A DNA stretch of 64,000 nt, from assembly GCA_024743115.1 (NCBI GenBank), contig JANSXC010000001.1, positions 117,628-181,627 on the forward strand, written 5' to 3'. Positions 8,752 to 53,191 of the stretch are shown one piece after another. The first letter of the stretch is position 1. Each line of letters opens with the position of its first letter. The stretch comes from a bacterium (GTDB taxonomy: Bacteria > Planctomycetota > UBA1135 > UBA2386). The notes under the pieces were generated by a model, which saw only the letters and a program-made list of their open reading frames with translations, did no database searches and was not told where the DNA came from. The translations under genes and the position numbers were made by a program.

Positions 8752-8921
8752 CGTCGCAGCGTAGCGCCGTTCCGCCTGAGCGCGCGGGTCGGTCACGATC
8801 AGGGCGCGGCGGCATCGGCCGTTCCCGGAAACGTCGCCCGGGACTTTCCCTACCTCGTCCGATCGTCTTTCATCGTGGCCGTGAGAGGTGTCGAGATGCG
8901 GGCGGCTGCGTCGCGGGTGCG

Positions 8922-28145: not shown

Positions 28146-28207
28146 CACGATCGGTCGCGCCGCGAAAATCCGCGAAGGAAACGGGTCGGCGGAGGTCTGG
28201 TTCTTCG

Positions 28208-35694: not shown

Positions 35695-38196
35695 CTACCT
35701 GGGACGGTCGTAGACTCGCTTGGACTGAGCTTGCAGGAGGCGCCGAAGGCCGGCGATGACCGCGCGTGCGAACTCGGGGTCCGACTGGAGCTGAGGGTGG
35801 TCGAGAAGCGACGCGACGGAGTCGATAACCATTCCCGATAGCGGTCGCGCAGCTGCCGTGTCGATCACCCACTCGACGAATCGCGGGTTTCGCTCCGTCG
35901 CGAACTGAGCGAGGGTCGCGCGCATCCTGAGTGCTTCGTGCGTCTCGAGGTCGTCAGGTGGGATCGCCGTTTGACCGTTGTCGCAGATTGCGAGGACTCG
36001 ATCCGAGGCCTGCTGAGCGAGTTTCTTCTCGTTGCGACTGATGTGATACAGGCAGCGCTCGATCTCGATGTTGCAGTGCACGAGCAGGCGCTGGGAGTCG
36101 GATATCAGGTCGCCTTCACCGAGTTCCTCGAGTTTGGCGATCGCGTCGTCGAATCGCGTGAGCAGCTTCAGGGATTCGGCCTGATTGAGTGCGGCGTTGA
36201 GATTCCAGGGGCGCAGTCGGCTGGCTTCTTCGAGGACTTCGATGCTGTTCTCGAAACGTGCCAGCCGACGATAGGTCAGTCCGAGGTTGTTGAGCGTTCC
36301 GAATGCTTCGGGCTGCAGTTCACGCGAACGCTCGAGATCGAGCAATGCCGCCTCGTTGTCGCCCATTGCAAACAGTGCGCTGCCGCGCACGTACGTCGTG
36401 CGCGCGGTCGCGCCACCGAGGAGCTCCTCGAGTTCCGAGCACTCGCGGCACAGCGCGGGCAGGATCCGCTCCCCGGCGTCGGGCTCCTGCTTGTCCGTCG
36501 TGCCGAGGGCAAGCTGCACGCCGAGGCGCAGGTAGCGCGCGGGCAAGAATCCGGTCGCCTCGGCGAGCCACGCGTCCGCCGCGGGATAGTCGCCGAGCCG
36601 CCGCGCGTGAAACCCCGCGACGAAGCGATCGAGGTCGGAGGCCGGCGTCGGCAGGTTCTCGAGATCGAGATCGCCGACGCCGACGCCAGCCTCGGGAAAC
36701 GCGCGATACCGCGCGACGAGCTCGGTCAGGTAGGCGCTCTGGTTGCTCGCGGTCGCGGCGATCGCGACCATGTCGGCCAGAGCAGCCGCTTCTTCCCCCT
36801 GATCCTGAAGCAGGGCGCATCGCAGGATGCGCGAATAGATGTCTTCGGGCTGCAGTTCGAGCAGCGTGTCGAATCGGGCGATGTAGTCCGCGCGTTCTTC
36901 GCGGTCCATCTGCGGTCGCCGGGCGACGCTGCCTTCCACCGCGATCGACGGCGGCAACGCGGCGCGCAGTCGCGCGTGCACCGCGCGGTTGCTCGCTTCG
37001 ATCTCGCGCCACGCGGCGGGGATCGCGAGCGCGAGCACGATCGTCGCGATCGCCATGCCGGCGACGAAGTAGATCGGCCGCCGGCTCATGTGCCGCCACG
37101 CCCGGGTCCAGCGCGTGATCGGCCGCGCCTTCACCGGCAGGTGCGCGAGGAACGCGCGCAGGTCGGCCTCGAGCTCGACCATGTCGGCGTAGCGCCGTTC
37201 GGGCTTGCGTTCGAGACCCTGTTCGATGATCGCGCAGAGGTCGAGTGGCAGGTCCTTGTCGATGCTGCGCAGCGGTGCGGGATCCTCGCGCTGGATGCGC
37301 TGAAGCACCTCGATCGAATCCCCTTCGTAGGGCGGCCGCAGCGCGACGAGGTGGTAGAGCGTCGCGCAGACGCCGTAGACGTCCATTGCGGGGGTCGCGC
37401 CGATGTCGCGGCGGACCTGCTCCGGCGCCATGTAGGCGGGCGTGCCGAGCGCGCTGCCCTTGGTCGTCATCGAGGCATCGCCGCTGCGCGCCGCGATGCC
37501 GAAGTCGAGCAGCACGACGCGACCGTCGACGGTGAGGAAGATATTGGACGGTTTGACGTCGCGATGGCACACGCCGGCCGCGTGGGCCGTGTGTAGCGCA
37601 GTGACGACCTCGAGCATCCAGAGCACGACCTGCGGGATGTAGTCCGCGGCCGCTACGGGCAGTCCGAGCTCCTCCTCGATCCAGCGCACGGGCGGCAGGC
37701 CGCCCGGTTCCGGTGTGTGTGTCGGGCTGACGACGCTCGCGAGCGAACCGCCCTGCAGCCGTTCCATGACGAGGTAGTGCAGGCCGTGATCGGTCTTGCC
37801 CTGGTCGTGGATCGGAACGATGTTCGGGTGGTTGAGCGTTGCGAGCGTGCGCGCCTCACGCAGGAAGCGTTCGCGACGCTTGCCCTGGCCGAACGCGCCG
37901 GGCGGGAGCACTTTGACCGCGACGGTGCGGCCCAGCGAGTTGTCGCGCGCTTCGTAGACCGCACCCATCGCGCCGATGCCGATGCATCGCCGCAGCGAGT
38001 AACGCTCGTTGAGCACCTGGCCGACGAGGCCGTCGTCGACGGTCGAAGTCACGAGCGGATCGAGTGCCAGCGTCTCACGCACCTCGTCGATGAGGTCGGG
38101 AGAATTCTTGCACAGCTCTTCGAGGTCGACGGGCTTGCCCGCCTCCTGCAGCGCGATCGCCCGTTCGACGATCGATAGCAATCGATCCTGAGTCAT
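35695..38196 (-). CDS. Ser/Thr protein kinase with TM helix and C-terminal TPR region - kinase D
   Basis: Track ORF 35695-38379, started at the ATG at 38196 (MTQDRLLSIVERAIALQEAGKPVDLEELCKNSPDL...). Kinase motifs: GIGAMGAVYEARD, VAVKVL, HRDVKPSNIFL, DFGIAARS, GTPAYMAPEQ. TM helix: IYFVAGMAIATIVLALAIPAAW. TPR example: NNLGLTYRRLARFENSIEVLEEASRLRPWN. Confidence 0.85.
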   Translation of the reverse strand: MTQDRLLSIVERAIALQEAGKPVDLEELCKNSPDLIDEVRETLALDPLVTSTVDDGLVGQVLNERYSLRRCIGIGAMGAVYEARDNSLGRTVAVKVLPPGAFGQGKRRERFLREARTLATLNHPNIVPIHDQGKTDHGLHYLVMERLQGGSLASVVSPTHTPEPGGLPPVRWIEEELGLPVAAADYIPQVVLWMLEVVTALHTAHAAGVCHRDVKPSNIFLTVDGRVVLLDFGIAARSGDASMTTKGSALGTPAYMAPEQVRRDIGATPAMDVYGVCATLYHLVALRPPYEGDSIEVLQRIQREDPAPLRSIDKDLPLDLCAIIEQGLERKPERRYADMVELEADLRAFLAHLPVKARPITRWTRAWRHMSRRPIYFVAGMAIATIVLALAIPAAWREIEASNRAVHARLRAALPPSIAVEGSVARRPQMDREERADYIARFDTLLELQPEDIYSRILRCALLQDQGEEAAALADMVAIAATASNQSAYLTELVARYRAFPEAGVGVGDLDLENLPTPASDLDRFVAGFHARRLGDYPAADAWLAEATGFLPARYLRLGVQLALGTTDKQEPDAGERILPALCRECSELEELLGGATARTTYVRGSALFAMGDNEAALLDLERSRELQPEAFGTLNNLGLTYRRLARFENSIEVLEEASRLRPWNLNAALNQAESLKLLTRFDDAIAKLEELGEGDLISDSQRLLVHCNIEIERCLYHISRNEKKLAQQASDRVLAICDNGQTAIPPDDLETHEALRMRATLAQFATERNPRFVEWVIDTAAARPLSGMVIDSVASLLDHPQLQSDPEFARAVIAGLRRLLQAQSKRVYDRPR

Positions 38197-38212
38197 GGTC
38201 GAGTCGGTCCTG

Positions 38213-38911
38213 TCAGTCGAGCGAGCGAGTGCGGCCGAACCCGCGGCGCCGCATCGCGACGAGCACGCGAGCCTTGGTTTCGTTGTAGGCCTGGCGCGCG
38301 ACGTCGGCGCTGGCGTAGCCGAGCTCCTCGGCGATCTCGGCGAACGGCAGATGGTCGAGCGACCGCAGTTCCCAGACACGGCGTTGTTTCGTGGTCAGCG
38401 TGCGGACGACACTGCGCAGCGCGTCGAACTGTTCGCGCTGTGCCGCGTCGTGCGATGGCGTCGCGTCGGGCGCGGCCTTGCTCAGCGCCTCGAGCTCCGC
38501 GGACTCGGACTTCTTCGCGAGCCGCGCGTCGCGGATGCCGGCCTGGTGGTGGCGCATCGTGTCGAGGATCTGGTTCTCGACTGCCGTCGCGAGGTAGCCG
38601 ATGAACGCCTCCTCCGTCGTGCTCTGCACGTTCTTCACCGAGCCGAGCACGCGCAAGAACACGCCCTGGACGACGTCGCCCGTGCTGAACGCCGACGACA
38701 TCCAGCCGTGGCTGCGGCGGAAATCGAGGCGCAGTCGGTTCTGCACGAGGCCGCGGACGCGGGCGTAGTAGCGCTCCGCGATCTGCTCCAGCATGCGCTC
38801 GTCCCCCGCGCGTACAGCCGCGAGCGCCGCGCCGAGATCAAAGTCGTCGGCTGGCAGGGGAGAGCGAGGTGCCATTGTCGGGAGCATAGCTGTAGTAGAG
38901 GTTTGTGACAT
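38213..38911 (-). CDS. ECF sigma factor - sigma D
   Basis: Track ORF 38213-38998. Candidate ATG starts are 38911 (MSQTS...), 38887 and 38875. Region 2: DVVQGVFLRVLGSV...FIGYLATAVENQILDTMRHH. Region 4: KQRRVWELRSLDHLPFAEIAEELGYASADVARQAYNETKARV. Kinase D starts 16 nt downstream. Confidence 0.8.
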   Translation of the reverse strand: MSQTSTTAMLPTMAPRSPLPADDFDLGAALAAVRAGDERMLEQIAERYYARVRGLVQNRLRLDFRRSHGWMSSAFSTGDVVQGVFLRVLGSVKNVQSTTEEAFIGYLATAVENQILDTMRHHQAGIRDARLAKKSESAELEALSKAAPDATPSHDAAQREQFDALRSVVRTLTTKQRRVWELRSLDHLPFAEIAEELGYASADVARQAYNETKARVLVAMRRRGFGRTRSLD

Positions 38912-40009: not shown

Positions 40010-42745
40010 TCACCAGCCGATTCGCTTCTCGAGCACGTTGCTCTGCGAGAAGCCCGACGGGCCCGCTGGGTCGACGACGAACGTCTGCGCGTAGAACGTC
40101 AGGCCCGCGAACAACGGCATGATGAAGCTGGGCAGCGTGTTGAGCGCGGCCGCCTGGCCCTGACCGTTCGTCGTGACCGGCCACCAGACGACGAGCATGA
40201 TGTTCGGATCGATCCGCAGGGTGTGGCCGGGCAGGGGCGTGTCGACGAGCTCGGCCTGGCCCAGGGACAGACCGAACAGCGCTAGCGTGGGGCCGGGAAC
40301 GTTCGAGAGCCGCATGACGTCGGTCTCGCCGACGCGGTAGGGGCCGGTGCCGCCGAGGATCGGGATCGCGCCGGCTTCACCCGCGACGCCTTCGAAGTGC
40401 TGCATGCGCCGGCCGCCGCGAATGCCGTGGTAGCGACCGCCGTGCACCGCGTGTTCCCCCATGAGGTCGAGGTCGCCGTCACCATCGACGTCGCACGCGA
40501 ACCCGTCGACGAGCGTCTGGTGCACGACTTCGAAGTTGGCGAGCGACAGCGGCCAGGTCCAGCCGGTGCGGCGCAGCAGCGCCCCGACGTTGGGCTCGTC
40601 GACCAGGCGGCCGAGGACGAGATCGGTGCGGCCGTCGGCATCGAAGTCACCGGTTGTCAGTGTCGCGCGCACCGCCGAGGCCTGCTGCGTGTGATGGATC
40701 TCGATCGCCAGCCCGGTCAGCGTGCTGATCGCGAACTGCGGCGACTGGCCCGCCGTCGTGTTGTCGTAGACGACGATCTCGCCCGTGAAGTTCGGGCGGG
40801 CGATGTCGACGTCGCCGTCGTCGTCGAGATCGGTCAGCACCGTTGCCGCGGGTTCGAACGGCATGGGCAGACTCGTCCAGGCTTGCGTGAACGGCGTGCC
40901 GGGCTGGCTGCTGCCGAGGTAGATGTGCGTTGCGAGAATCGTCGACGTGAGCAGGTCGGGGCGGCCATCGCCGTTGAAGTCGGAGACCCCGTCGATGCGT
41001 CCGCCCGTCGTCGCGGAGAACGTCGGCCCCGCGGCGAAGGTGCCGTTCTGGTTCCAGAAGATCGCGCTCGCGTAGCCCTGGCCGGCGGCGGGATTGCTGG
41101 TCCAAATCACGTCCTCGTCGCCGTCGCCGTCACAATCGACATTGCGGAAGCTGTCGGCCGTGGTCACGCCCGTGCCCATCTCCAGTCCCGCGGGGCCGAC
41201 CTGGCCGACGACGTGGTAGCGGCCGCCGCCGTTGTTGCGTAGCCAAACCATGTGCTGGAACGTGGACGGGAAGGGGCCGTTGAGCTGGTAGAGCCCGACC
41301 ACGCGGTCGCGCACGCCGTCGCTGTCGACGTCGATCTCGATGTGGCCGCCGTAGCGATAGCCGGTCGGTGCCGTGATGGTCTGGTTCACATACTTCACGG
41401 AACCGTCGCCGAGGTTGCGGCCATGGAAATCGAGGTCGCCGTCGCGGTCGACGTCGTGCAGCTGCCACGGCCGGCCGACGATCATCACGTCCTTGCCGCC
41501 TGCGTTCGGCATCGGGTCATCGATCCAAGGACCACGGCCGTAGAACACGCAGCGGCCGGCCACGAAATCGACATCGCCGTCACCATCGATGTCCGCGGCT
41601 CCCGCGAGGCTCTCGGAACCGGCACCCGGGAAGCTCCAGGCGCGCGCGAAGTCACCGGCACCGCGATTGACCGCGATCTCGAACGTCGACGCGAAGTCGA
41701 GTTCGGGCCACTGGTAGTTCGTGCCGCCGCCGCCACCGCCGCAACAGACGCCGTCGAGGTCGCCGTCATCGTCGATGTCGGCAAGGTACTCGGCCGGACC
41801 GCCGATCGCCTGCGGTTCGACCGTGAACGTCGCGGGGCCCGTGCGCCGGAAGATCTCGTAGCGCGGCACACCGTTGGTGCCGAGTTCGGGGCGGAACACG
41901 ACGAGATCGTCGTCGAGGTCGCCGTCGAGGTCGCCGCCGGTCCAAAGCCATGGGGTGTTGCCGTTGTAGGTCAGCGACGACGTCAGCGTCTGCTGCAGCA
42001 CGAGTTGGTTGCCACTCACGCGGTAGATCCACGCATTGGGTGAGGAGCGGTCACTCACGAGGACCTCGTCGCCGGGTTGGCCGTCGAGTTCGAGGACCGT
42101 GACGTGCGGAGTGACCAGCGGGTTGTTGACGATCGGCGCGTTGAGGAGGCCGCCCGTCGAACGATGCAGGTCGAGCTGGATCACGCCGAGGTAGTCGATG
42201 TACGCGAACGCGACGTCGGGCAGGTTGTCGCCATCGAAATCGCCGGTGCCGACCGTGTGGCCGTACGGAATGCCGGTCAGGCTGCGCGTCGTCGTCGCGA
42301 ACGTGAAACCGGGCCCGGCCACGTAGCGCACCGTACCCATGCCGCCCGCGACCACGAAATCGTCGCGGCCATCAGCGTTGAAGTCCGCGACCGCGATCGC
42401 GAACGAGCGCGGTGCCGGGCCGCCGATCGGGTACAGCTGGTGCGCGCCGCTCCAGACCGGCGTGAACGCACCGCCGACGTTCTCCCAGACGACGATCTCG
42501 GTCTGGTTGCGAGCCTGGTGAACCCGCGAGCCGACCGCGTCGAGATCGCCATCGCCGTCGAAGTCGCCGAGCCGCTGGAACGGCGCACTGCTCACCGGCA
42601 GGACCGCGACGGGCGCGTGCAGTGTGGCTGCGGACTGCTGCGCGGCGAGCGGCGCCGCGAGGCTCGCCAAAGCAGTGAGGCTTGCCAGTACGGTGAGGCC
42701 GGCGGGCGTGAGCGAGGGGCGCGGTCGCGGTTGACGGAACGGCAT
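40010..42745 (-). CDS. Secreted FG-GAP/VCBS-repeat protein carrying the shared C-terminal module
   Basis: Track ORF 40010-42988, started at the ATG at 42745 (MPFRQPRPRPSLTPAGLTVLASLTALASLAAPLAAQ). It has about 13 Ca-binding-type repeats, including GDFDGDGDLD, ADFNADGRDD, GDFDGDNLPD, ADIDDDGDLD, ADIDGDGDVD, HDVDRDGDLD, VDCDGDGDED, SDFNGDGRPD, TDLDDDGDVD, GDFDADGRTD and CDVDGDGDLD. The last ~129 aa (nt ~40010-40399) are the shared module. Confidence 0.85.
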   Translation of the reverse strand: MPFRQPRPRPSLTPAGLTVLASLTALASLAAPLAAQQSAATLHAPVAVLPVSSAPFQRLGDFDGDGDLDAVGSRVHQARNQTEIVVWENVGGAFTPVWSGAHQLYPIGGPAPRSFAIAVADFNADGRDDFVVAGGMGTVRYVAGPGFTFATTTRSLTGIPYGHTVGTGDFDGDNLPDVAFAYIDYLGVIQLDLHRSTGGLLNAPIVNNPLVTPHVTVLELDGQPGDEVLVSDRSSPNAWIYRVSGNQLVLQQTLTSSLTYNGNTPWLWTGGDLDGDLDDDLVVFRPELGTNGVPRYEIFRRTGPATFTVEPQAIGGPAEYLADIDDDGDLDGVCCGGGGGGTNYQWPELDFASTFEIAVNRGAGDFARAWSFPGAGSESLAGAADIDGDGDVDFVAGRCVFYGRGPWIDDPMPNAGGKDVMIVGRPWQLHDVDRDGDLDFHGRNLGDGSVKYVNQTITAPTGYRYGGHIEIDVDSDGVRDRVVGLYQLNGPFPSTFQHMVWLRNNGGGRYHVVGQVGPAGLEMGTGVTTADSFRNVDCDGDGDEDVIWTSNPAAGQGYASAIFWNQNGTFAAGPTFSATTGGRIDGVSDFNGDGRPDLLTSTILATHIYLGSSQPGTPFTQAWTSLPMPFEPAATVLTDLDDDGDVDIARPNFTGEIVVYDNTTAGQSPQFAISTLTGLAIEIHHTQQASAVRATLTTGDFDADGRTDLVLGRLVDEPNVGALLRRTGWTWPLSLANFEVVHQTLVDGFACDVDGDGDLDLMGEHAVHGGRYHGIRGGRRMQHFEGVAGEAGAIPILGGTGPYRVGETDVMRLSNVPGPTLALFGLSLGQAELVDTPLPGHTLRIDPNIMLVVWWPVTTNGQGQAAALNTLPSFIMPLFAGLTFYAQTFVVDPAGPSGFSQSNVLEKRIGW

Positions 42746-42988
42746 GGCGGTCTCCAGGTCGACGGGAGGTGGGCTGCTCGGCAGCGCTGGTTCTGCGAGG
42801 CCTCGCGGGGCAGCAATTGTCGGGCCAGGGCGCGTTCTCGACCAGCCCATGCGGCCGCGCCGTTCGCCGCGCCGCGCCAGCCCCAGCACGCTGTCGGATA
42901 CCCGGCGGCGAGCTGACGGTTCGGCGTCGGACCCGACGCTGTCGCCCGGCCGAGTTCGGTCGTAGAGTGCGCCACGGGAGTCACGCAC

Positions 42989-43888
42989 TTGACCGAAACC
43001 GATACGTCAAAAACGGGCAGCGCATTCGACGTCGAATTGTTGGGGCGGATCACGGGCCGCCCGATCCAGACGGTCGCGGACCTGATCGATCTGGAGGAGC
43101 ACCTGACCAGCGAGCCCGGCGATCCGAATGCGCCGCGCTGGTGCTTCCGCGGCCAGCCGCAGGTGTACGGCAACCTGACGCCCTCGTTTCAGCGGCAGTT
43201 CCAACGCGAGGCGATCGGCGCCGCGGAGATCATCGAACGGCGGCTCGTGGAGGCGTTTCGGGAGCACTACGGCCAGCTCGGTGATCGCAGCCGGGAGATG
43301 CCGCATCCCCCGCGGATCGACGATCGCTTCACGCTGCGTTGCCTGAGCGTGATGCAGCACTACGAGATCCCGACGCGGCTACTCGACTGGAGCTCTTCGT
43401 TCTGGACGTCGGTCTACTTCGCGTGCGCGAGCCACGAGCGGGACGAAGCGGAGTTCTGGTTCTACGACCGCCGGATCTTCGACTCCCAGGTGAACAGCCT
43501 CGACTACTCCAGTCTGCTGTCGGATTCGATGAACCCGGCCGAGGAACCGCAGATTCTCGGAGCCCGCAGCGAGTGCCTCGTGCTCGAACTCGATCCCAAG
43601 ATCACGCCGCGCATGGTCGAGCAGGACGCGCACCACACGGTGGCGACGGATGTCTTCTCCGACCACGCGCCGCTGCTGTATCAGCGGCGTCGCGAGTTTC
43701 ACGAGATGTGGGCGGATGCCGAGCCCGCGTTCCAGCGACGCAAGATCGACGGCGCCTGCAAGGGCAAGGCGCTGCAGTTCCTCGCCGAAGAGAAGAACAT
43801 CACCGCGAGCACGATCTTCCCCGACGTGGTCGGGCTGGGCCGGTTCCTGCGCTGGCAGTTCGATTCGCTGCGTACGATGCTGCTCTGA
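42989..43888 (+). CDS. FRG-domain protein (function unknown)
   Basis: 299-aa ORF with a TTG start. Motifs: WCFRGQPQVYGNLTPSFQR and SVMQHYEIPTRLLDWSSSFWTSVYFA, matching the FRG-domain signature (FRG ... QHYGxPTRLLDW). There is no signal peptide. Confidence 0.75.
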   Translation: MTETDTSKTGSAFDVELLGRITGRPIQTVADLIDLEEHLTSEPGDPNAPRWCFRGQPQVYGNLTPSFQRQFQREAIGAAEIIERRLVEAFREHYGQLGDRSREMPHPPRIDDRFTLRCLSVMQHYEIPTRLLDWSSSFWTSVYFACASHERDEAEFWFYDRRIFDSQVNSLDYSSLLSDSMNPAEEPQILGARSECLVLELDPKITPRMVEQDAHHTVATDVFSDHAPLLYQRRREFHEMWADAEPAFQRRKIDGACKGKALQFLAEEKNITASTIFPDVVGLGRFLRWQFDSLRTMLL

Positions 43889-43917: not shown

Positions 43918-45426
43918 TCAGCGGACGAACAGCATCGCCAGCCGTTCGCGTTCTGCGGCGTCGATCACGGGGATACGCGCCTTCACCCGTACGGCCGCTC
44001 CGTCGTTGGTGAGTTCTGCCGTGAGCAGCGCCTTGGCCAGTGCCAGTGCGCCTTCGTCCTCGCGCAGTTCCCAGGGTAGGCACGCTGCGGGCGCGATCGT
44101 TGCGAGTATGCCCTCCAGTAGCGGGCACAGTTCGGCCGCGTCCTCTTCGTCGCGTGCCATGACTTCCCCCGCGATTTGCGCGCCCTTGGTGTCGAAGGTC
44201 ACGCGCAGTTCGGCGCCGAGGATCGTCGGCAGCTGAGCGAAGCGCAGGAACGGCCACAGCTTCGATTGGCGCGGGACGACGACGTGGATCGCAGCAGCGC
44301 GGTCGCGCAGCAGTTCGGCGCCGCGCTCCGGACGCGGCTTGCCCGCGCCCATGCCCGAGGTCGCGAGTAACCCGTGTTCGGAGAACTCGATGTCGCCGTT
44401 GAGAAGCTTCGGGCGGCGCTTCTGCTGTCGTTCGGTGGCCTCGCCGATCTCGCGCTGGTGCGGTTCGATCTCGCCCGCGGCCTGCCACGTGATCGCGAAC
44501 GGGTTGACCTCGTCGGCCCGGCCCTGAACCACGATACATGAGTGATCGAAGCGGGCGTTGCCGTAGCGGTGGACGAAGGCGAACGGCAGCTCACTACCGG
44601 CGTCGCTGAGGATCTGCGCGCCGTTCTTCTGTGCCGGCGACAGCGTGCCGCCTGCCTGCAGGATTCGCCGCGCCATCGAGACGGCCGCGAACCTGCGGCT
44701 CAGTGGTGCGAGCCACGTCATGTCAGGCAGTCGCGAGTGATCCACGACGATCGCGGCGTCGAAGTTGAGCGGCAGTCGCAGCGTCGTCGCGTCGAGGCGA
44801 CGGCGAACGCGCGTCGTCGGCTTGCCGCGAAGGCTGGCAACCGCCTGTCGGGCCCGGGTGCGCAGTGTCGGTGGCGCGGCTTGGATGCCCTCGATCGCCA
44901 GGCATTCGGCGATGGCCCCCCGCACGCCGCGGCGCTCGAGCGTGCTGATCGCGAGTTCGATGTCGAGCAGGCGCGCACGATCCCGGTCCGACTCTGGCTC
45001 GAGCTCGGCGATCCCGGGCAACGCGCGAGCGAGGAACTGGCGCAGGCCCATGTCCGACGCGTCGATGCCGAGCGCCGCGAAGTGGAATCTCGCGTCGGTC
45101 ATCGCGAGCAGATCACCCGGACCGTGACAGAGCAGCATCGCGAGACCGCGCCTGCCGTGTTTGCGGTAGTCGTGCACGAAGCCGTCCGCGAATAGCGGCA
45201 CGAAGTGGTCGTGGCCCGGGATCTCTTCGCCGGTGCGCGCGATGTTCCAGACTTCGAGCTGGCCGTCGCGGCCGCGCCGCCAGCGGGACTCCTGGAACAC
45301 GCCGCCTGCTTCGACGCGCGCAGCGACCTGGACCGCGGGTTCGAGCCAGGGCGGGTCGGGGCCGTCACCGTCCTGGGCCCGCGTAGGAGCTGCGAGGATC
45401 AGAAGTGCGATGGCGACCGTTCTCAT
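43918..45426 (-). CDS. Hypothetical secreted protein (502 aa)
   Basis: This is the 3' part of track ORF 43918-47301, started at the ATG at 45426 (MRTVAIALLILAAPTRAQ signal peptide). The upstream 625 codons of the track ORF are antisense to kinase E and Arg-rich. No family recognised. The gene is divergent from kinase E with a 75-nt gap. Confidence 0.6.
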   Translation of the reverse strand: MRTVAIALLILAAPTRAQDGDGPDPPWLEPAVQVAARVEAGGVFQESRWRRGRDGQLEVWNIARTGEEIPGHDHFVPLFADGFVHDYRKHGRRGLAMLLCHGPGDLLAMTDARFHFAALGIDASDMGLRQFLARALPGIAELEPESDRDRARLLDIELAISTLERRGVRGAIAECLAIEGIQAAPPTLRTRARQAVASLRGKPTTRVRRRLDATTLRLPLNFDAAIVVDHSRLPDMTWLAPLSRRFAAVSMARRILQAGGTLSPAQKNGAQILSDAGSELPFAFVHRYGNARFDHSCIVVQGRADEVNPFAITWQAAGEIEPHQREIGEATERQQKRRPKLLNGDIEFSEHGLLATSGMGAGKPRPERGAELLRDRAAAIHVVVPRQSKLWPFLRFAQLPTILGAELRVTFDTKGAQIAGEVMARDEEDAAELCPLLEGILATIAPAACLPWELREDEGALALAKALLTAELTNDGAAVRVKARIPVIDAAERERLAMLFVR

Positions 45427-45501
45427 CGGGCGCCAGTCTACCGATCCGATGACCGGCGGTTGGCACTTGTCCTGCCCGACCCGCCTTTGCACTGTGGCGG
45501 T

Positions 45502-48500
45502 GTGACCGATCGCCCGGACCATGCTCGCCTGCGTGAGGTCTTCCTCGGGGCCTGCGATCTGCCCGCGGCGGAACGGGCGGAGTATCTGGCGACGGCGTGT
45601 GGTGACGATCAGGCGCTGCGGGACGCGGTCGAGCGGCTGCTCGCGCAGGATCGTGACGGTGACGAAGGGTTTGCGGGGTCGAACGCGCCCGATCAGCCGG
45701 AGCAGCCCGAGCGCATCGGACCGTTTCGGGTCCTCGGGCTGATCGGCGAAGGCGGTATGGGGCGCGTCTACCTCGCGGAGCAGGACAAGCCGCGTCGTCG
45801 CGTCGCGGTGAAGGTCCTCCGTGCGGGGCTGGCGTCCGCGGCCAATCGGCGGCGATTCGAACACGAGGCCGAGGTGCTCGGCCGACTGCAGCATCGCGGC
45901 ATTGCGCAGGTGATCGAGTTCGGCATGGCCGCGGGGCTCGGTGAGCCGATTCCGTTCCTCGCCATGGAGTTCGTCGATGGTGTGCCGTTTCGCGAAGCGG
46001 TGATCGGGATGGCGATCGAGGAACGGATCACGCTGTTCCTCGCGGTCTGCGACGCGGTCGAGCACGCGCATCGCCACGGTGTCATCCATCGCGATCTCAA
46101 GCCGGAGAACGTGCTCGTCGTCGACGGCCAGCCCAAGGTGCTCGACTTCGGGATCGCGCGCGTTCACGGCGAGGCCAGTCGCGAGCAGATGACGATGACG
46201 GGGCAGATCGTCGGCACGCTGGCCTACATGTCGCCCGAGCAGGTGCGCGGCGAGGTCGATCTCGATACCCGCAGCGATGTCTACGCGCTCGGTGTCCTGC
46301 TCTACGAATTGCTCGCGGGGCGGCTGCCGCTCGAGACCGATCGGCACTCGTTCGTCGAAGCACTGCGTATCGTCCAGGACGTGGCGCCGCGCACCCTCGG
46401 CGCCATTGCGCCGGAGTGTCGGGGTGATCTCGAGGTCCTCGTCGGCAAGTGTCTCGAGAAAGACCCCGAGCGCCGTTACGCGGGAGTCGGAGCGCTCGCT
46501 GCCGATGCTCGGCGCTTCCTCGCCAAAGAACCGATCGAGGCGCGTTCGCCGACGACCTGGTATCAGCTGCGCAAGTTTGCAGCGCGGCATCGCGTATCCG
46601 TTGCGGCTGGAGTGGTCGTGACTCTTGCGCTCGTCGTCGGCTTCGTTGCGACGCTGGTCTACGCCAATCGCGCGGAGCGATTGCGCATCGAGGGACTGCA
46701 CGACACGTATCGTGCCACGATTGCGGCGGCGTACGCGGCAATCGCATCGGATCCCCATCGCGCGAAGCGTTCGGCCGAGGCGGCGCCCGAGTCGCTGCGG
46801 GGATTCGAGTGGCGGCTGCTCGCTGCGGCACTCGACCGCAGCTGCGTGGCGACGGGTGACGCGTTCGTGGTTCGCCGGTCCGGCGTGGCTGGTGACCGAG
46901 TAATGGCCGCGGTCGTGGCCGGTGGCGAGGTGGTCCTCCACGACGTGAGCGCTGGCGAAGTGATCGCGCGGGTGCCGACGGGTCTCCCCGACGCTGCCGA
47001 GCCACGACTGTCCGCGAACGGTCGCAGGGTGCTCGTCGGTGCACCGGCGTTGCCGGGGTTGCGGTTGCTCGCGACGGACGGTGCGGTCGTTCGCGACTTC
47101 TTCGCCGCCGAACCGACCGCGGCTCAGGCACTCCTGAGTCCCGATGGTGCAACTTTGCTCTCCTGCCACCCTGGCCGTGCCATCGAACTGCTGCCCGCGG
47201 GCGCGGGGACTGCGCGCACGCTCCCGACTGCGATGATCGCGGGCTGGTCGGCGGATGGCACGCGTGTACTCCGTGGTCGTGCGGCGTCGCTCCACCTGCA
47301 CGATGCCGTAACGGGTCGCCTAATGCGGGAGCTGCGCCACAACGGGCTCGGTCCCTCGGCGGGTCCGATGTTCGCGGAGGATGCCGGCGAGTTCGTCATC
47401 GGCAGTCTGCGACTGCTCGAACTACGGGACGCGGATTCCCTCGAACTCATCGAGCGGGTTCCCGTCGACCGCCACCTGCTGGCGGCCGTCGCGTGTGATC
47501 GGTCGGCGCGGCGGCTCGCGGCATCGTCCAAGGAGCCGGAGCTCGGTACGACTCGCCTGTTCGATCGGGAGCAACGCCATCAGTCCGCCGTACACGGTGG
47601 CGGCGCCATGCGATCGCTCGCATTCGACGAGAGCACGGGGCTCTGGTTCGGCGCCAATGGTGCCGGTGTGCGGCCGTTCTCACCGACGGTCGGTCGCGGA
47701 AGGGTCCTAGGCGGCGATCGCACGCATGACAGCTTCGTCTACAAGGCGAGCTTCTCGGCGGCTGGTCGGCGGATCGTGACCTCGGGGTGGGACGGGAAGG
47801 CGCGGGTTTTCGACGCGTGGGACGGGCGGTTGCTGGCGACGATCGCGAGCTTCGACTGGGCGTCCGGTATCGCGTTCCTCGACGAGGACACGGTTGCGAT
47901 CCTGCATCCGACGCGTGAATCCGTCAGGCGCTGTTCATTGACGACCGGTGAATCGTCCGTGGCGCAGGTGGCCGAGCGGTGGGCGGAGATCGCACCGATC
48001 GGCGCGCGCACCGTACCGTTCGAATGGCATGCCGGCCTCGCGGCGGTGGTGTTCGAACGCGGGGTAGAACTGACGGCTGTGAAGCAAGGGATTCACCGGG
48101 TCGGCCCGGACGGCGAACATCGCCCGTTCCTCGAGGTCGACAGCGGCGTCGTGGCACTGGCCTGGCGGCCGGAGCGGCGAGCACTCGTGTTCGCGACCGA
48201 AAACGGTCGGCTGCAGCACTGGCGCGTGCCCGTCGGGGACGGTGATCCGACCTGCGTGCTGCGGCGAACCGGGCTCACGGGCCTGGCCTATGCGCTCGAT
48301 ATCTCACCCGATGGCAGCCGAGTCGCGATCGGCCTCGATACCGGCACGATCGAACTATGGGATTTGCCCGCGGGTCGTCAACTCGTCGAACTGACGGGGC
48401 ACGACAACTACGTGCACGACGTCGAGTTCTCCCCCGATGGCACACAGCTGGTTTCCGCGTCGGGCGACGGCACGGTGCGCATCTGGGATACCAAGCCACT

Positions 48501-48534
48501 CGCGCAGCGCATGCGCGACGCCTGGGATTGGTAG
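45502..48534 (+). CDS. Ser/Thr protein kinase with TM helix and C-terminal WD40 beta-propeller - kinase E
   Basis: Track ORF 45205-48534, started at the GTG at 45502 (VTDRPDHARLREVFLGACDLPAAERAEYLATACGDDQALRDAVERLL). Kinase motifs: GEGGMGRVYLAEQ, VAVKVL, HRDLKPENVLV, DFGIARV, GTLAYMSPEQ. TM helix: VSVAAGVVVTLALVVGFVATLVYA. Classical WD40 repeat: LTGHDNYVHDVEFSPDGTQLVSASGDGTVRIWD. Confidence 0.85.
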   Translation: MTDRPDHARLREVFLGACDLPAAERAEYLATACGDDQALRDAVERLLAQDRDGDEGFAGSNAPDQPEQPERIGPFRVLGLIGEGGMGRVYLAEQDKPRRRVAVKVLRAGLASAANRRRFEHEAEVLGRLQHRGIAQVIEFGMAAGLGEPIPFLAMEFVDGVPFREAVIGMAIEERITLFLAVCDAVEHAHRHGVIHRDLKPENVLVVDGQPKVLDFGIARVHGEASREQMTMTGQIVGTLAYMSPEQVRGEVDLDTRSDVYALGVLLYELLAGRLPLETDRHSFVEALRIVQDVAPRTLGAIAPECRGDLEVLVGKCLEKDPERRYAGVGALAADARRFLAKEPIEARSPTTWYQLRKFAARHRVSVAAGVVVTLALVVGFVATLVYANRAERLRIEGLHDTYRATIAAAYAAIASDPHRAKRSAEAAPESLRGFEWRLLAAALDRSCVATGDAFVVRRSGVAGDRVMAAVVAGGEVVLHDVSAGEVIARVPTGLPDAAEPRLSANGRRVLVGAPALPGLRLLATDGAVVRDFFAAEPTAAQALLSPDGATLLSCHPGRAIELLPAGAGTARTLPTAMIAGWSADGTRVLRGRAASLHLHDAVTGRLMRELRHNGLGPSAGPMFAEDAGEFVIGSLRLLELRDADSLELIERVPVDRHLLAAVACDRSARRLAASSKEPELGTTRLFDREQRHQSAVHGGGAMRSLAFDESTGLWFGANGAGVRPFSPTVGRGRVLGGDRTHDSFVYKASFSAAGRRIVTSGWDGKARVFDAWDGRLLATIASFDWASGIAFLDEDTVAILHPTRESVRRCSLTTGESSVAQVAERWAEIAPIGARTVPFEWHAGLAAVVFERGVELTAVKQGIHRVGPDGEHRPFLEVDSGVVALAWRPERRALVFATENGRLQHWRVPVGDGDPTCVLRRTGLTGLAYALDISPDGSRVAIGLDTGTIELWDLPAGRQLVELTGHDNYVHDVEFSPDGTQLVSASGDGTVRIWDTKPLAQRMRDAWDW

Positions 48535-48556: not shown

Positions 48557-49081
48557 CTACGCGTCGCGCTCTGCGAGCTCGGCGCGCAGCCAGGCCTTGG
48601 CCATCCGCCAGTCGTTCTTCACGGTGCGCTCGCTGACCGCGAGTTCGGTGGCGATCTCGGCGATGCCGAGCCCGCCGAAGAAGCGCAGTTCGACGACGCG
48701 CGCCTGCCGCGGATCCAGCTTCGCGAGCTCGTCCATGGCATCGGAGAGCGCGATCACGTCGAGCTCGTCGAAGTCCGGGGGCTCGGCACCGGCCGGCGCC
48801 GCCGATAACGTTACGTGCGCGGCGCCTCCGCCGCGCTTGTCGGCGTGTGCCCGGCGCGCGTGATCGAGCAGCACGTTCCGCATCGCGTTGGCCGAGATCG
48901 CGAAGAAGTGAGTCTGCGATCGCCAATCGAGTTCGGGGTTGTGTTGTAGCCGCAGCCACGCCTCGTTGACGATTGCGGTCGGCTGCAGCGTGTGGCCCGG
49001 CTTCTGCTTCAAGTAGCGCGCGGCGAGCGCGCGCAGTTCGCGGTAGAGCGCGGGCAGCGGATCGTGATCTGGTGGGGGCAT
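48557..49081 (-). CDS. ECF sigma factor, TIGR02999 / ECF43-like - sigma E
   Basis: Track ORF 48557-49399, started at the internal ATG at 49081 (MPPPDHDPLPALYRELRALAARYLKQKPGHTLQPTAIVNEAWLRL). Region 4: RVVELRFFGGLGIAEIATELAVSERTVKNDWRMAKAWLRAEL. It is convergent with kinase E, with 22 nt between the stops. Confidence 0.85.
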   Translation of the reverse strand: MPPPDHDPLPALYRELRALAARYLKQKPGHTLQPTAIVNEAWLRLQHNPELDWRSQTHFFAISANAMRNVLLDHARRAHADKRGGGAAHVTLSAAPAGAEPPDFDELDVIALSDAMDELAKLDPRQARVVELRFFGGLGIAEIATELAVSERTVKNDWRMAKAWLRAELAERDA

Positions 49082-49128
49082 CGTTCCCGGTCCGCGATGT
49101 GGTCGATCGGTTGCTCCTGCAGCAGAGC

Positions 49129-49725
49129 TCAGCCCTGCCGCCCTTCGATCGCGGCGAGCAGAACCGCCGTCGCGAACACGAGTCGCCGGTCGATCGGGTT
49201 GCTCTGGTCGATCGCGACCTCGAGGCGATAGACGAACGGGTTGAAGCGCTGTTTGAACTTTACCACGTGGCGGTCGCCGGCTTTGAGCTGGAACGACTGC
49301 GGTACGAGGTCGGAGACGAATCGACGGATGAGCGCGAGGCCGGCGCTGTCCTCCTCGAGCTGCGCGGTCGGCTGGTCGCCGGCGGGCAGGATCTCCCACG
49401 AGTCACGGAGCAGCGAGCGGAAGCCCTTGCGACGGGCGGTACCGATCACGCTGTTGCTGCGCGGGTCGACGATGTCGTAGGCGGCCGAGAAGTCGAGGAT
49501 CTGGCGCGCGTTGATGTGGATCAGCGGTTCCTGTTTGGACTCGTCCGTGTAGATCCGGATGTCCTCGCGCAGCTTGAACGCCTTCTGCGCGCAGAAGCCG
49601 ACGATGCGGTCGCCGTCGTACACGTGGAAGCTCGCGCCGAGAAACTTGAAAACCTTGCGGCGGATCACGTAGCGGTCGAGTTCGAACAGTTCGGTCATGC
49701 GCGGCAGCCTCTCTATCAGCGCCAT
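49129..49725 (-). CDS. LURP-one-related / scramblase-like (YxjI-like, tubby C-terminal-like fold) protein
   Basis: Track ORF 49129-49839, started at the ATG at 49725 (MALIERLPRMTELFELDRYVIRRKVFKFLGASFHVYDGDRIVGF...). The pattern Y.I.rKvf...G..f.v.D, followed by repeated beta-hairpin-like segments and a C-terminal hydrophobic helix (LVFATAVLLAAIE), resembles the LOR/YxjI family. The assignment is by eye only. Confidence 0.55.
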   Translation of the reverse strand: MALIERLPRMTELFELDRYVIRRKVFKFLGASFHVYDGDRIVGFCAQKAFKLREDIRIYTDESKQEPLIHINARQILDFSAAYDIVDPRSNSVIGTARRKGFRSLLRDSWEILPAGDQPTAQLEEDSAGLALIRRFVSDLVPQSFQLKAGDRHVVKFKQRFNPFVYRLEVAIDQSNPIDRRLVFATAVLLAAIEGRQG

Positions 49726-49729
49726 CCTA

Positions 49730-50908
49730 TCAGCCAGCGTGGCGCTCGCCGCAGCCGAAGCAATGGGTCGTCGGGAGAGACTCACCGGTGCCCGGCGCGA
49801 GCAGATGGCGCGGCAGCCGTAGAACGTCACCACACTCACGGCAGTTTCGCAGCGTCGCGCAGGTCGTGCCGCAGCTGGGGCAGAAGCGGGCCTCGGGGCC
49901 GCAGGCGTGGCCGCATGCGATGCAGTGTGCGGTAGTCGATGCGGTCGCAGACGTGGGCACCGGGGCAGGCGTCCGGGCGGCGCGTCTTTCGGCCGCGAGC
50001 GCAGCGGCGGCTTCGTCGAGCGCCACGCAGGCCTGGGGCAAGCGGGTTGCCAGCGGTCCCGCGTAGGATTCCGCGAGCGAGCGCGATTCGCGGCGTTCTC
50101 GGCGGTGTTCTTGGGACCGCATGCGATCGTGATGCTCCACCGCGAGTTCGTGGTTGCAGAGCAGTCCCTCGAGCGCCGTGAGTCGTTGCGAGACCCAGTC
50201 GCGCAGCGTCTCGTGTTCGACCGCGTCCTCGGTCGCGAGCAGCGAACGCGTGCTCGTGATCGCGTGACGCGCGTTCGTGCTCGGTGCGTGCAGCTCGGTG
50301 ATTGCCTGGGTGAGTTGCCCTTCGAGTGTGTTGCGGCGGCGATCGTGCGCGCGCACGAGGCCGGGGTAGGTCAAGGTCAGGAAAGCGATCGTTGCGCAAG
50401 TCATCCCGAGGTAGCAGAACGGCCGCCAGCCGTCGCCGTAGACCGCGACGACGACGATCGCAGTCGTGAACGCGGCGAGCGGAGCGGCCGCCGTCCAGGC
50501 GAAGCGATGATCCACGATCGTAGCGACGTGTAGACCGGTCAGCGGATACGAGACCGCGGCCGCGATACCGACCGCGAGCCACGCACTGACATCGTGAGAA
50601 CGCAGCACGGCGAACGCGGCGAAGAAGAGCGAGTACGTCAGCGCGAGCAGCAGGAACTGGCCGAGCCGAAAGCGATCGAGTCGACCGGGAGACCGCAGCT
50701 CGACGAGGTACCAGAAGCCGGCGCCGAACAGGAGGACTGCGAGACCGGTGAGCTTGACGAACACCTCGGTGTCGGACGCTGGTACGGGCAGTTCGGGATC
50801 TCGGCGCGGTGCGCTCGGCAACGCGAGCGTCGTGCAGAACGCGATCACCGACAGCAAGAGCACGACGACCATGAGCTCGATGACCGTGAATCCGCGCTGA
50901 GTTCGCAT
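49730..50908 (-). CDS. Membrane protein with prepilin-type N-terminal motif, ~5 further TM helices and a C-terminal double zinc ribbon
   Basis: 392-aa ORF with an ATG start. The N-terminus MRTQRGFTVIELMVVVLLLSVIAF matches the type IV pilin / pseudopilin cleavage-methylation motif (G-F-T-x-I-E-L). Hydrophobic helices include LTGLAVLLFGAGFWYLV, FLLLALTYSLFFAAFAVL and AAFTTAIVVVAVYG. The C-terminus carries two Cys4 ribbons: CIACGHACGPEARFCPSCG and CRECG...CFGCG. Confidence 0.65.
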   Translation of the reverse strand: MRTQRGFTVIELMVVVLLLSVIAFCTTLALPSAPRRDPELPVPASDTEVFVKLTGLAVLLFGAGFWYLVELRSPGRLDRFRLGQFLLLALTYSLFFAAFAVLRSHDVSAWLAVGIAAAVSYPLTGLHVATIVDHRFAWTAAAPLAAFTTAIVVVAVYGDGWRPFCYLGMTCATIAFLTLTYPGLVRAHDRRRNTLEGQLTQAITELHAPSTNARHAITSTRSLLATEDAVEHETLRDWVSQRLTALEGLLCNHELAVEHHDRMRSQEHRRERRESRSLAESYAGPLATRLPQACVALDEAAAALAAERRAARTPAPVPTSATASTTAHCIACGHACGPEARFCPSCGTTCATLRNCRECGDVLRLPRHLLAPGTGESLPTTHCFGCGERHAG

Positions 50909-51040
50909 GCCTGGTCCGACGCCTGGGCTGCACCGACTATTCCCCGGGGCGTACAGGTCGGGCGCGGCAGTGCCCGGTCACCATGTGGCCGATACCATGT
51001 GACCGGCCGTTCGGGCGCTACTATCCGAACGAAGGAAACC

Positions 51041-53191
51041 ATGGCCACGTCATCCGAGCTCCTTTCCACGTCCTGGTTGCTGTTGCTGCGGTCCTCCTGT
51101 TTCGCGGCGGCGGTGTCAGTGACGGTGATCGCCCAGGACTTCCGCACGCTCGAGGTGGTCGGCTACCAGTCCGCGGCCTACGACCATCTGCGCGATCGAC
51201 TCACGGTGCTCGGGCCGAAGAACGCGACGTTCGACTACGACGGCACTGCGCGCCTGCGCGGGCCACGGCTGGACGCGGTGGTGCCGGTAGACCTCGTATT
51301 CGAAGAACACACCGGCAGCATGCTGGGGGTGCTGCGGGCGTTCTCGGGCCGGTTGCTGGCCGTGCGCCGCGACGGCCTCGAATGGCGCTACCTGGCGCCG
51401 CCCACGACGCCACCGGCACGCAACCTGTTCAGCCTGGCCTACGATTCGGCGCGTGCTGAGACGGTACTGTTCGGCGGGTTCAACCCGACGAGCAACGGCC
51501 TCGACGAGACCTGGGTGTTCGATGGCGTGGACTGGACGCAGCGCTCACCCGCAGTGAGTCCGCCCGGTCGACGAGGCGCTGCGATGGCTTTCGACTCCAC
51601 GCGTGGGGTCGTTGTGCTGTTCGGTGGCTACGGGACCTCGGCGTTCGGTGACACTTGGGAGTGGAACGGCACGACCTGGACGCAGGTGCAACCTATTGCG
51701 AGTCCGGCCGGGCGACAGGGCGCGGCGATGGCTTACGACCCGATCCGCGATCGCTGCGTGCTCTATGGCGGGAACAACGGTGCCGGGTTCTGGTATCCAC
51801 AAACCTGGGAATACGACGCCCAGACCTGGGTGCTGCGGACGAACACACCGACCGGCCCCGCGTTTCGCGAGCAGTCCGCGTTCGTCTGGAATCCGCGCGT
51901 GGGTCGTTGCGAGCTCGTCGGTGGCAAGCGCGCCGGCAACGTGTTGTTCGATCGCTGGCAGTGGGACGGCACGGTCTGGCACAACTCGAGCCTGGCCATG
52001 CAGCCGAGCGACGCGCGGTTCATGGCCGCGTTTCCCGGCGGTGACGGCGTGTTCGCATTCACAGCCGCGGACGGGGTCTCGGCGGAGGCGACGTGGCGGT
52101 TCGACAGAAGCGGGTGGCAGCAGCTCGCCGTCGCGACGCCGTCGATCACTGCCGTGCACGAACCCGTGGTGTGCAGCAGCCCGGGTGCGGTCTACCTCCT
52201 CGAGGCCACCGATCCGATGACGCTGCACGAGTTCGACGGCTCCAACTGGCGCGTGGCGTCGAGCACGGGGCCGGCGCGACGGGCCAACGTCGCGATGACC
52301 TACGATTGGGCCAACGGCGAGGTGGTGGTGTTCGGTGGGGGCGACGGCACGCAGGTCTTCGGCGAGACCTGGACGTTCGATGGCGTGAGCTGGACGCAGC
52401 AAGCGCCCGCGAATCAGCCGCCGGCGCGAGAGCTCGGCGCGATGACGTACGATCCGCAGCTCGGGCGCGTCGTCCTCGCCGGTGGATGGAGCCAGATCGC
52501 CTGGCTAAACGACACTTGGCAATGGAGTGGCACGGACTGGACCGCGTTTCCCGCCATGCCGTCGCCGCCCTCGGACAGCGTGCTGCTGATGGAATACGAC
52601 TCGACCCGATCGCGCATCGTGGCCGTGACGACCAGTCGGCTCGGTGGCACGTTGCAGGTCAGTACGCTCGAGCCGAGTGGCTGGACGTCGGTCGGCACGG
52701 GGGTGAATCTGGGGCCGAACCTGTTCCGCGTTCGGTCCCTGATCGGACTGCCCTATGCGCGGGGGGTGCTGGCGATCGACGATCGCGGCGTGCACTCGTT
52801 GAGCGCGCAGGTCGGCACGGCCACCGACTACGGCCAGGCTTGCACCGTCACCGCACCGCTGCTCACTGCGCGGGAGTGGCCTCGGCTCGGCAGTCCGGAC
52901 TTCGGCATCGACGTGACCGGCGCACCCGCGAGCGGAATCGTCGCCATGCTGGGCGCCGATCGGCAGGGACCGGGCGGCACGGTGGGCAACTGTCCGCTGC
53001 TCGTGCAATCAGGGCAGGCCGCGTTGCTGGTGCAGTCGAACGCTCTCGGCTTCGCGACGGTGCCCTTGCCGTTGCCCGAGATCCTCGGCTTCGTCGGGCT
53101 CGACCTCTACTTCCAGGCGGCTGTGCTTGACGTGTCGGCGCCGAGTGGGTTCACGACGACCCGCGGACTGCAGGTCACGCTGGGCCACTGA
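51041..53191 (+). CDS. Secreted Kelch-repeat beta-propeller protein carrying the shared C-terminal module (Kelch 2)
   Basis: Track ORF 50594-53191, started at the ATG at 51041, preceded by GAAGGAAACC (MATSSELLSTSWLLLLRSSCFAAAVSVTVIAQ). Kelch-type repeats are of the form ...P.gR.gaamayD..R...vLyGG......DTWEW(N/D)G..W. The last ~121 aa (nt ~52826-53191) are the shared module. Confidence 0.85.
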   Translation: MATSSELLSTSWLLLLRSSCFAAAVSVTVIAQDFRTLEVVGYQSAAYDHLRDRLTVLGPKNATFDYDGTARLRGPRLDAVVPVDLVFEEHTGSMLGVLRAFSGRLLAVRRDGLEWRYLAPPTTPPARNLFSLAYDSARAETVLFGGFNPTSNGLDETWVFDGVDWTQRSPAVSPPGRRGAAMAFDSTRGVVVLFGGYGTSAFGDTWEWNGTTWTQVQPIASPAGRQGAAMAYDPIRDRCVLYGGNNGAGFWYPQTWEYDAQTWVLRTNTPTGPAFREQSAFVWNPRVGRCELVGGKRAGNVLFDRWQWDGTVWHNSSLAMQPSDARFMAAFPGGDGVFAFTAADGVSAEATWRFDRSGWQQLAVATPSITAVHEPVVCSSPGAVYLLEATDPMTLHEFDGSNWRVASSTGPARRANVAMTYDWANGEVVVFGGGDGTQVFGETWTFDGVSWTQQAPANQPPARELGAMTYDPQLGRVVLAGGWSQIAWLNDTWQWSGTDWTAFPAMPSPPSDSVLLMEYDSTRSRIVAVTTSRLGGTLQVSTLEPSGWTSVGTGVNLGPNLFRVRSLIGLPYARGVLAIDDRGVHSLSAQVGTATDYGQACTVTAPLLTAREWPRLGSPDFGIDVTGAPASGIVAMLGADRQGPGGTVGNCPLLVQSGQAALLVQSNALGFATVPLPLPEILGFVGLDLYFQAAVLDVSAPSGFTTTRGLQVTLGH

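Follow-up and report, generated by a model that had tools for sequence, protein, structure and literature searches.

Do three co-directional genes, for a membrane protein with a prepilin-like N-terminus, a scramblase-like protein and an extracytoplasmic function (ECF) sigma factor, make up a sigma-factor module, or have separate genes simply come to lie side by side? The locus that raises this question sits in a 64,000 bp stretch of a planctomycete contig (JANSXC010000001.1 of assembly GCA_024743115.1, positions 117,628 to 181,627 of the forward strand), which we call the window and whose own numbering is used throughout. Its GC content is about 68%, and its closest relatives are metagenome-assembled genomes (MAGs) of Planctomycetota. 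We conclude that the three genes, each explained separately, have come together this once and form no conserved system, and we give a probability of roughly 0.6 to the reading that these are independent modules side by side, of which gene 1 encodes a stand-alone, membrane-tethered pilin mimic. The genes in question are as follows.

Gene 1: 49730..50908, minus strand, open reading frame (ORF) for a 392-residue polytopic inner-membrane protein, short form of an uncharacterised family.
Gene 2: 49129..49698, minus strand, 189-residue protein, most likely a distant LOR/YxjI-like one; start revised from 49725.
Gene 3: 48557..49081, minus strand, sigma factor of the ECF43 type (Sigma70_ECF), 174 residues.
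Kinase gene: 45205..48534, plus strand, Hanks-type Ser/Thr kinase with a C-terminal WD40 propeller, convergent with gene 3 and its presumed partner.

The original prediction placed three co-directional minus-strand genes at 49730-50908, 49129-49725 and 48557-49081, and all three ORFs are present at those coordinates. Of the two intergenic gaps that it gave, the 47 nt before the sigma gene stands, while the 4 nt between genes 1 and 2 becomes about 31 nt because the start of gene 2 moves to 49698. This later start (MTELF..., 189 residues) is most likely the right one, since it is the one used in the public annotation and in more than 30 homologues, and its ATG is preceded at 9 nt by a GAGAGG box. 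No terminator-like site was predicted on the minus strand between genes 1, 2 and 3, so co-transcription of the three in this genome, across gaps of 31 and 47 nt, is possible. On its other side gene 1 is separated by a spacer of ∼134 nt from a divergent Kelch-repeat gene, the real start of which is near 51043.

The co-direction, the short gaps and the missing terminator are also what favours the proposal originally made for this locus, namely that the trio is a functional operon in which the products of genes 1 and 2, associated with the membrane, serve the sigma factor as an anti-sigma-like tether or as membrane-stress sensors; the zinc module of gene 1, carried on a membrane anchor, moreover loosely recalls zinc-binding anti-sigma factors. 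We put this proposal to a synteny test. On the gene 1 side 45 genome loci with up to 6 kb of flank on each side were taken, 44 of them with a confirmed homologue and about 40 keeping at least 1.5 kb downstream; they were screened by tblastn with gene 2, gene 3 and the kinase, and by all-against-all clustering of their ORFs. The 44 loci span at least 10 phyla, the taxa being Planctomycetota, Armatimonadota, Desulfobacterota, Myxococcota, Elusimicrobiota, Verrucomicrobiota, Gemmatimonadota, Nitrospirota, Gammaproteobacteria and others. In none of the 44 did tblastn find a LOR-like gene or a Sigma70_ECF-type sigma gene within ∼6 kb of the gene 1 homologue, and at the loci of gene 2 homologues neither a gene 1 homologue nor a gene 3-type sigma was found (0/84). 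The sensitivity of tblastn is sufficient here, as it detects a paralogous sigma gene in the window at 47% identity (E 6e-40). ORF clustering found no neighbour common to more than 9 gene 1 loci, and the cluster that reached this number is of the promiscuous GAF/histidine-kinase type; the gene tables of three close gene 1 homologues show three unrelated contexts. Lack of synteny elsewhere had been named in advance as the result that would speak against sigma partnership, and with 0/44 and 0/84 loci it is the result obtained: the trio recurs at none of them.

At two of the gene 1 loci the downstream gene is of a familiar kind. In L035 the homologue (5071-6711) is followed by a Ser/Thr kinase gene (7245-8240), and in L033 the homologue (4975-6477) is followed by the gene for a WD40-repeat protein (6805-9831). 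These are the two domain types joined in the window kinase, and at 2/44 loci they are too rare for synteny. Kelch matches beside gene 1 homologues were rejected as antisense shadows: the ORF called at 50594-53191 is too long, and its first ∼150 codons run antisense to gene 1.

Sigma partnership is further weakened by gene 3 itself, which already has its regulator, given the threonine motif that it carries and the kinase gene beside it. Gene 3 scores 154.7 bits against PF07638 (cut-off 21.1) and 184.1 bits against TIGR02999 (cut-off 126.15), and its translation, GHTLQPTAIVNEAW, has at the sigma-2.2 position Q33-P34-T35-A36, an uncharged threonine motif that stands in place of DxxD. In ECF43 the sigma-2.2 motif is uncharged, with consensus QTTA, and its threonine is phosphorylated on activation; the hallmark of the group is a co-occurring Hanks kinase, with activation by phosphorylation and not by anti-sigma release (PMC13147305). 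The convergent gene at 45205-48534, whose true start codon is probably downstream of 45205, encodes a kinase domain (Pkinase, E 1.6e-43 over residues 175-426) plus WD40 repeats, and the stop codons of the two genes are 22 nt apart. On family scores, threonine motif and neighbouring kinase, gene 3 classes as an ECF43-type sigma factor, and the original description of a kinase-coupled ECF sigma with a convergent kinase is borne out. The adjacent kinase would phosphorylate Thr35 in sigma region 2.2 and so switch gene 3 on, and no anti-sigma factor would be needed.

Characterised ECF43 pairs, EcfP/PknT of Vibrio parahaemolyticus and EcfK/PknS of Xanthomonas citri, share with gene 3 the family, the threonine found in its QPTA motif and the adjacent Ser/Thr kinase. 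The window locus differs from them in that its kinase is convergent and carries a WD40 propeller, and in that gene 3 does not have about 22 N-terminal profile positions: in both family models the match begins at position 23-24 of 185, so the usual N-terminal ∼22 residues are missing, and reading further upstream in frame gives just one extension, which runs into gene 2 and is unlike the consensus. The paralogous sigma detected by tblastn, also of Sigma70_ECF type, is encoded at 5342-5809 (+), is 47% identical to gene 3 and has a Ser/Thr kinase gene 13 nt behind it, at 5823-7022 (+). This pair has the canonical co-directional ECF43 order, unlike the convergent pair at 45-49 kb.

Comparison of gene 1 with ZAS anti-sigma factors (RsrA, ChrR, RslA) gives a similar answer. 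There is likewise a cytoplasmic zinc element on a membrane anchor with a sigma gene nearby, but gene 1 has neither an anti-sigma domain nor HxxxCxxC, its CxxC...CxxC ribbons are C-terminal, its adjacency to a sigma gene is not conserved (0/44), and the neighbouring sigma is kinase-controlled. No anti-sigma model (zf-HC2, RskA) was present, at E ≤ 10, among the Pfam matches of the window protein or among the 25 commonest families in 66 relatives of gene 1. Taking these points together with the two given below, the absence of ribbons from some family members and the predicted solubility of gene 2, we regard sigma partnership of genes 1 and 2 as highly improbable.

What, then, does gene 1 encode? 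Its product can be divided into four parts, two of them delimited from an AlphaFold2 model.

Residues 1-29: 50822..50908, minus strand, class III (prepilin-type) signal anchor, MRTQRG and then FTVIELMVVVLLLSVIAF (PF07963, TIGR02532).
Residues 46-183: 50360..50773, minus strand, five-helix membrane domain, the conserved core of the family (model helices, conserved columns).
Residues 184-312: 49973..50359, minus strand, helical stalk of three long helices, predicted to be cytoplasmic (model).
Residues 328-387: 49748..49927, minus strand, two Cys4 ribbons predicted to bind zinc (conserved Cys; DZR PF12773).

The N-terminus has the make-up of a class III signal peptide of pilins and pseudopilins: a basic leader of 6 residues that ends in Gly (−1), then Phe at +1, Glu at +5 and, as is typical of the class, a stretch of about 20 hydrophobic residues. 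It scores above cut-off with both relevant models, N_methyl PF07963 (25.1 bits, cut-off 21.2) and TIGR02532 (22.6 bits, cut-off 16.3), in agreement with the pilin/pseudopilin leader first claimed. The AlphaFold2 model, built from 66 homologues, is confident, with a predicted local distance difference test score (pLDDT) of 89.2 and a predicted template modelling score (pTM) of 0.73. Its helices at 9-29, 46-72, 82-104, 109-131, 134-157 and 159-205 form six transmembrane (TM) segments, that is, the pilin-like helix and five more, as had been estimated, and only about 16 residues separate the first two helices. Further helices follow at 207-225, 230-265 and 269-312, then short strands in the ribbon region, so that the soluble region ending in ribbons is also recovered. 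The Arg-rich loops RSPGRLDRFR (71-81) and VRAHDRRR (184-191), read from the sequence, share a side with the basic leader, which argues for an N-in, six-TM, C-in topology; the stalk and both Cys4 ribbons are accordingly drawn in the model on the cytoplasmic side, where we predict them to be. The conserved polar residues E70, R81, H84 (in the family; Gln in the window protein) and H127 lie close to the cytoplasmic face, level with Glu11, and might pair with it.

The ribbon ligands would be C329/C332/C343/C346 and C356/C359/C383/C386. All eight cysteines are conserved in the family, as expected of the two ribbons originally described; in the model scan, however, the window protein gives only 21 bits against DZR PF12773, under the 27.3 cut-off, and other zinc-ribbon models are likewise below theirs. 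Zinc binding is predicted from the cysteine pattern. Gene 1 family proteins share two consecutive Cys4 ribbons with DZR membrane proteins, DZR being a generic module with no defined function; that of gene 1 sits C-terminally after a stalk and is below cut-off in the window protein. The 5-TM domain offers little for a CPBP/Abi-like intramembrane protease: F80-x-x-x-H84 is present, the other motifs are absent, and there is no Pfam match. The combination of a prepilin leader, multiple TM helices and a double zinc ribbon is, as was suspected, undescribed: no relevant description of polytopic prepilin-type or pilin-like double-zinc-ribbon proteins was found in the literature searched.

A family of considerable size shares this architecture. 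A word-indexed search returned 74 relatives of gene 1, and an exhaustive profile search brings the family to 221 cluster representatives at E ≤ 1e-30 and 636 at E ≤ 1e-10. Two alignments were used to examine its conservation, A1 with 16 short-form proteins 41-54% identical to the window protein and A2 with 66 family proteins. In A1 the residues G6, F7, T8, E11 and L12 and all 8 Cys are invariant; in A2 F7, T8, L9, E11, L12 and the eight Cys are at least 90% conserved, and the N-terminal motif of the family reads G/A-F-T-x-x-E-L. N_methyl matches 63/66 of these proteins and DZR PF12773 matches 62/66. The prepilin motif is no chance match, given its invariance in A1 and its recognition by N_methyl in 63/66 members, and orthologues lacking the motif or the ribbons, which would have spoken against the original description, are not what the alignments show: both features are kept across the family. 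Every homologue examined has G, A or S at −1, the small residues that prepilin peptidases tolerate there. Since the profile of the family aligns over its first ∼55 positions with solved pilins (E 3e-12 for Geobacter PilA-N; also PilA, PilE, GspG and PpdD), the likeness goes beyond the motif, and the N-terminus of gene 1 is homologous to pilin alpha-1. In the 5-TM domain the invariant or near-invariant columns of A1 and A2 include G64, H127, P143, E70, R81 and H84.

Full-length homologues come in three layouts. The common long form, of ∼600 residues, has a periplasmic domain of ∼200 residues between the pilin-like helix and the 5-TM domain, and most family members have this domain. Forms from Elusimicrobia and Verrucomicrobia end after the 5-TM domain, which is the sole part matched there; that some family members have no ribbons at all tells against sigma partnership. 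The third layout, that of the window protein, is short and reads as derived, by loss of the periplasmic domain. Across the family the length of the cytoplasmic stalk varies from 0 to about 300 residues. For the periplasmic and 5-TM domains we found no match to a Pfam family, a PDB sequence or a PDB fold; Sensor_TM1 is weakly matched by 19/66 family members (best E 2e-4). The long-form layout of a TM helix, a large periplasmic domain and a TM cluster resembles that of the inner-membrane protein CreD, but homology with CreD (PF06123) was rejected: hhalign against Escherichia coli CreD gave a probability of 9.9% over 14 columns, and PF06123 is absent from the 25 families most often matched by the 66 family members.

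Set against type IV pilins and type II pseudopilins (PilA, PilE, GspG, PilA-N), gene 1 shares the basic leader, the small residue, F-T-x-x-E-L and the alpha-1 helix, and its long-form relatives carry their ∼200-residue periplasmic domain at the position of the pilin head. It differs in the five further TM helices and the cytoplasmic zinc-ribbon C-terminus, and the window protein has no periplasmic head at all. Pilins have one N-terminal helix and behind it a globular head outside the cytoplasm, without other membrane spans, so that they are extractable; gene 1, with five more TM helices behind its first, would be unable to leave the membrane to join a filament. Nor does it share their genomic association with pilus or type II secretion genes.

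We propose the following mode of action for gene 1. A prepilin peptidase would cleave the protein after Gly6, the five additional TM helices would block its extraction into a filament, and it would then act as a membrane-tethered pilin mimic. Its pilin-like helix might dock where a type IV filament or a type II secretion machine has its base, or at some other place where pilin helices are recognised, and docking would be coupled to a cytoplasmic partner bound via the zinc ribbons, with output through stalk and ribbons.

Several observations weigh against the reading of the trio as independent modules with gene 1 as a pilin mimic. Among the window ORFs scanned there is no pilus, type II secretion or prepilin peptidase gene near gene 1, and no pilus or type II secretion gene recurs beside its homologues (44 loci; three gene tables); with no such genes nearby, the one tie of gene 1 to a type IV filament machine is its N-terminal motif. 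The N-terminal helix is modelled at lower confidence (pLDDT 56-79). As regards the trio, the short gaps (31 and 47 nt) and the lack of a predicted terminator make a lineage-specific link conceivable.

The missing pilus and secretion genes, at every locus, equally suit an account in which the prepilin-like N-terminus is an inherited signal anchor, uncleaved and unconnected to any filament machine, and the protein is a sensor, a scaffold or possibly an intramembrane enzyme with its activity in the 5-TM domain and ribbons. That the 5-TM domain is the best conserved part of the protein, with invariant polar residues such as H127 and E70, agrees with it, as do the weak Sensor_TM1 matches of some members (19/66) and the Ser/Thr kinase gene that follows one long-form gene (L035). 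The account is at odds with the conservation of the N-terminus: F at +1, T at +2, E at +5, L at +6 and the small residue at −1 are kept at 90% or more across phyla, even in the short form. Since the motif is kept to this extent even where the periplasmic domain is gone, the constraint exceeds what a plain anchor needs, and a Glu at +5 comes at a cost to a membrane helix that is hard to explain if the residue has no use. We consider a plain anchor unlikely and prefer the pilin mimic.

A more specific and more tentative form of the pilin-mimic reading is that gene 1 represents an undescribed class of prepilin-peptidase substrates that are multi-pass proteins with a true pilin alpha-1 as their first helix, inserting at the base of a filament or pseudopilus. 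From there gene 1 could terminate or anchor the filament or occupy the binding sites of pilin helices, with stalk and ribbons relaying inward. We hold this class to be doubtful as yet; if true, it would mean a new control of filament length or activity, or a sensing of the membrane pilin pool, across many phyla.

Gene 2 belongs to a family of its own, with more than 1500 homologues and a mean column identity of 62%. The original prediction likened its product to the LOR/scramblase fold, and the direction of that likeness holds; the LOR model itself, PF04525, does not match the window protein at E ≤ 10 and matches 16/34 relatives weakly, the best at 23.5 bits and all under the 24.5 cut-off. The partial PF04525 alignments in these relatives are collinear, and some relatives are named YxjI by JGI (the Joint Genome Institute). 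In the model of gene 2 (pLDDT 84.3, pTM 0.85) there are 12 strands and a C-terminal helix at 171-185; the tubby-like superfamily is laid out as a 12-stranded barrel around a C-terminal helix. With LOR/DUF567/YxjI proteins (PF04525) gene 2 thus has in common a length of about 190 residues, 12 predicted strands and a conserved C-terminal helix, while all scores of its family are below cut-off and Foldseek retrieves no tubby/LOR structure; neither Foldseek nor a profile search of PDB sequences gave anything significant in the PDB. We take gene 2 to be, most likely, a distant LOR/YxjI-like protein, perhaps with a tubby-like barrel. The terminal helix (...AVLLAAIEGRQG) is its most conserved segment. 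The hydrophobic helix that had been pointed out at this terminus is therefore present; in the model it fits a buried core helix better than a membrane anchor, and a predicted soluble barrel of this kind would be an odd membrane-associated sigma partner.

In its closest clade gene 2 has a partner that the window does not have. Gene 2 homologues are followed there, at 0-39 nt, by a gene of ∼88 codons whose product has two TM helices and a single zinc ribbon (CxCG...NCPxCG), and the occurrence of this gene falls with identity to gene 2: 4/4 loci at 60% or more, 14/18 at 55-60%, 6/27 at 50-55% and 0/18 below 50%.

Small partner of gene 2: L046, 5579-5857; L048, 5606-5872; about 26 further loci (L050-L113).

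Gene 2 and the small zinc-ribbon protein appear, from their arrangement in these genomes, to be an undescribed conserved gene pair, a feature that sets the close clade of gene 2 apart from LOR/YxjI proteins. The small gene is not in the window, and none of the 62 matches of a profile search comes from the 570-kb source contig or carries its locus-tag prefix, which is a weak negative; the search has limited sensitivity for a protein of 88 residues.

As the zinc ribbons of gene 1 would also lie on the inner side of the membrane, it is conceivable that gene 1 has replaced a lost small partner and that genes 1 and 2 are a lineage-specific functional pair. This would account for the small gene being 0-39 nt downstream in 18/22 loci at 55% identity or more to gene 2, yet absent from the window and not found on the source contig, and for gene 1 lying co-directionally 31 nt upstream of gene 2 with its ribbons at the cytoplasmic face. 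Specific homology between the two zinc proteins was, however, rejected, hhalign giving a 49% probability over 15 columns that are a generic CxxCG knuckle and all that the small protein shares with the gene 1 family. At none of the other loci does a gene 1 homologue adjoin a LOR gene, and the arrangement is a single occurrence in a source MAG that may be incomplete, with the limited search sensitivity just mentioned. Replacement seems to us quite improbable, less so than sigma partnership, and separate modules remain our preferred explanation for the adjacency of genes 1 and 2.

The window as a whole is unusually kinase-dense, with six Hanks-type Ser/Thr kinase paralogues in 64 kb, one of which (ORF 35695-38379) carries TPR repeats.

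Kinase paralogues by tblastn: 5823-7022, 9435-10055, 16646-17671, 22810-23988, 36967-38217 and 45205-48534.

In ORF 28115-31234 (+) residues 48-187 are ECF sigma regions 2 and 4, and five CarboxypepD_reg repeats follow at residues ∼420-820; this ORF is a fusion of a sigma factor with extracytoplasmic repeats or else two genes merged by the ORF call. The Kelch-repeat protein divergent from gene 1 (51043-53191, +) has a 29%-identical paralogue at 10637-12766 (+), and its listed start at 50594 is an antisense artefact overlapping gene 1. Upstream of the kinase gene lie genes for an FRG-domain protein (42989-43888, +) and a 992-residue FG-GAP repeat protein (40010-42988, −), both unrelated to the trio. 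A second prepilin-like gene, suggested at about 26.5 kb by a weak tblastn match, turned out to have an ordinary signal peptide.

The trio should not be propagated as a conserved three-gene sigma module. A second lead, of minor weight, is the conserved gene pair made up of gene 2 homologues and the small zinc-ribbon gene, in a bacterial family with no assigned function. In the family of gene 1 a pilin-type N-terminus under strict conservation is joined to a polytopic membrane domain and to zinc ribbons on the cytoplasmic side. The accepted role of pilin-type signal peptides is to make filament subunits that can be extracted, and a conserved pilin signal on a non-extractable protein suggests an unrecognised regulatory or anchoring component of type IV filaments, or a second use of prepilin peptidase processing.

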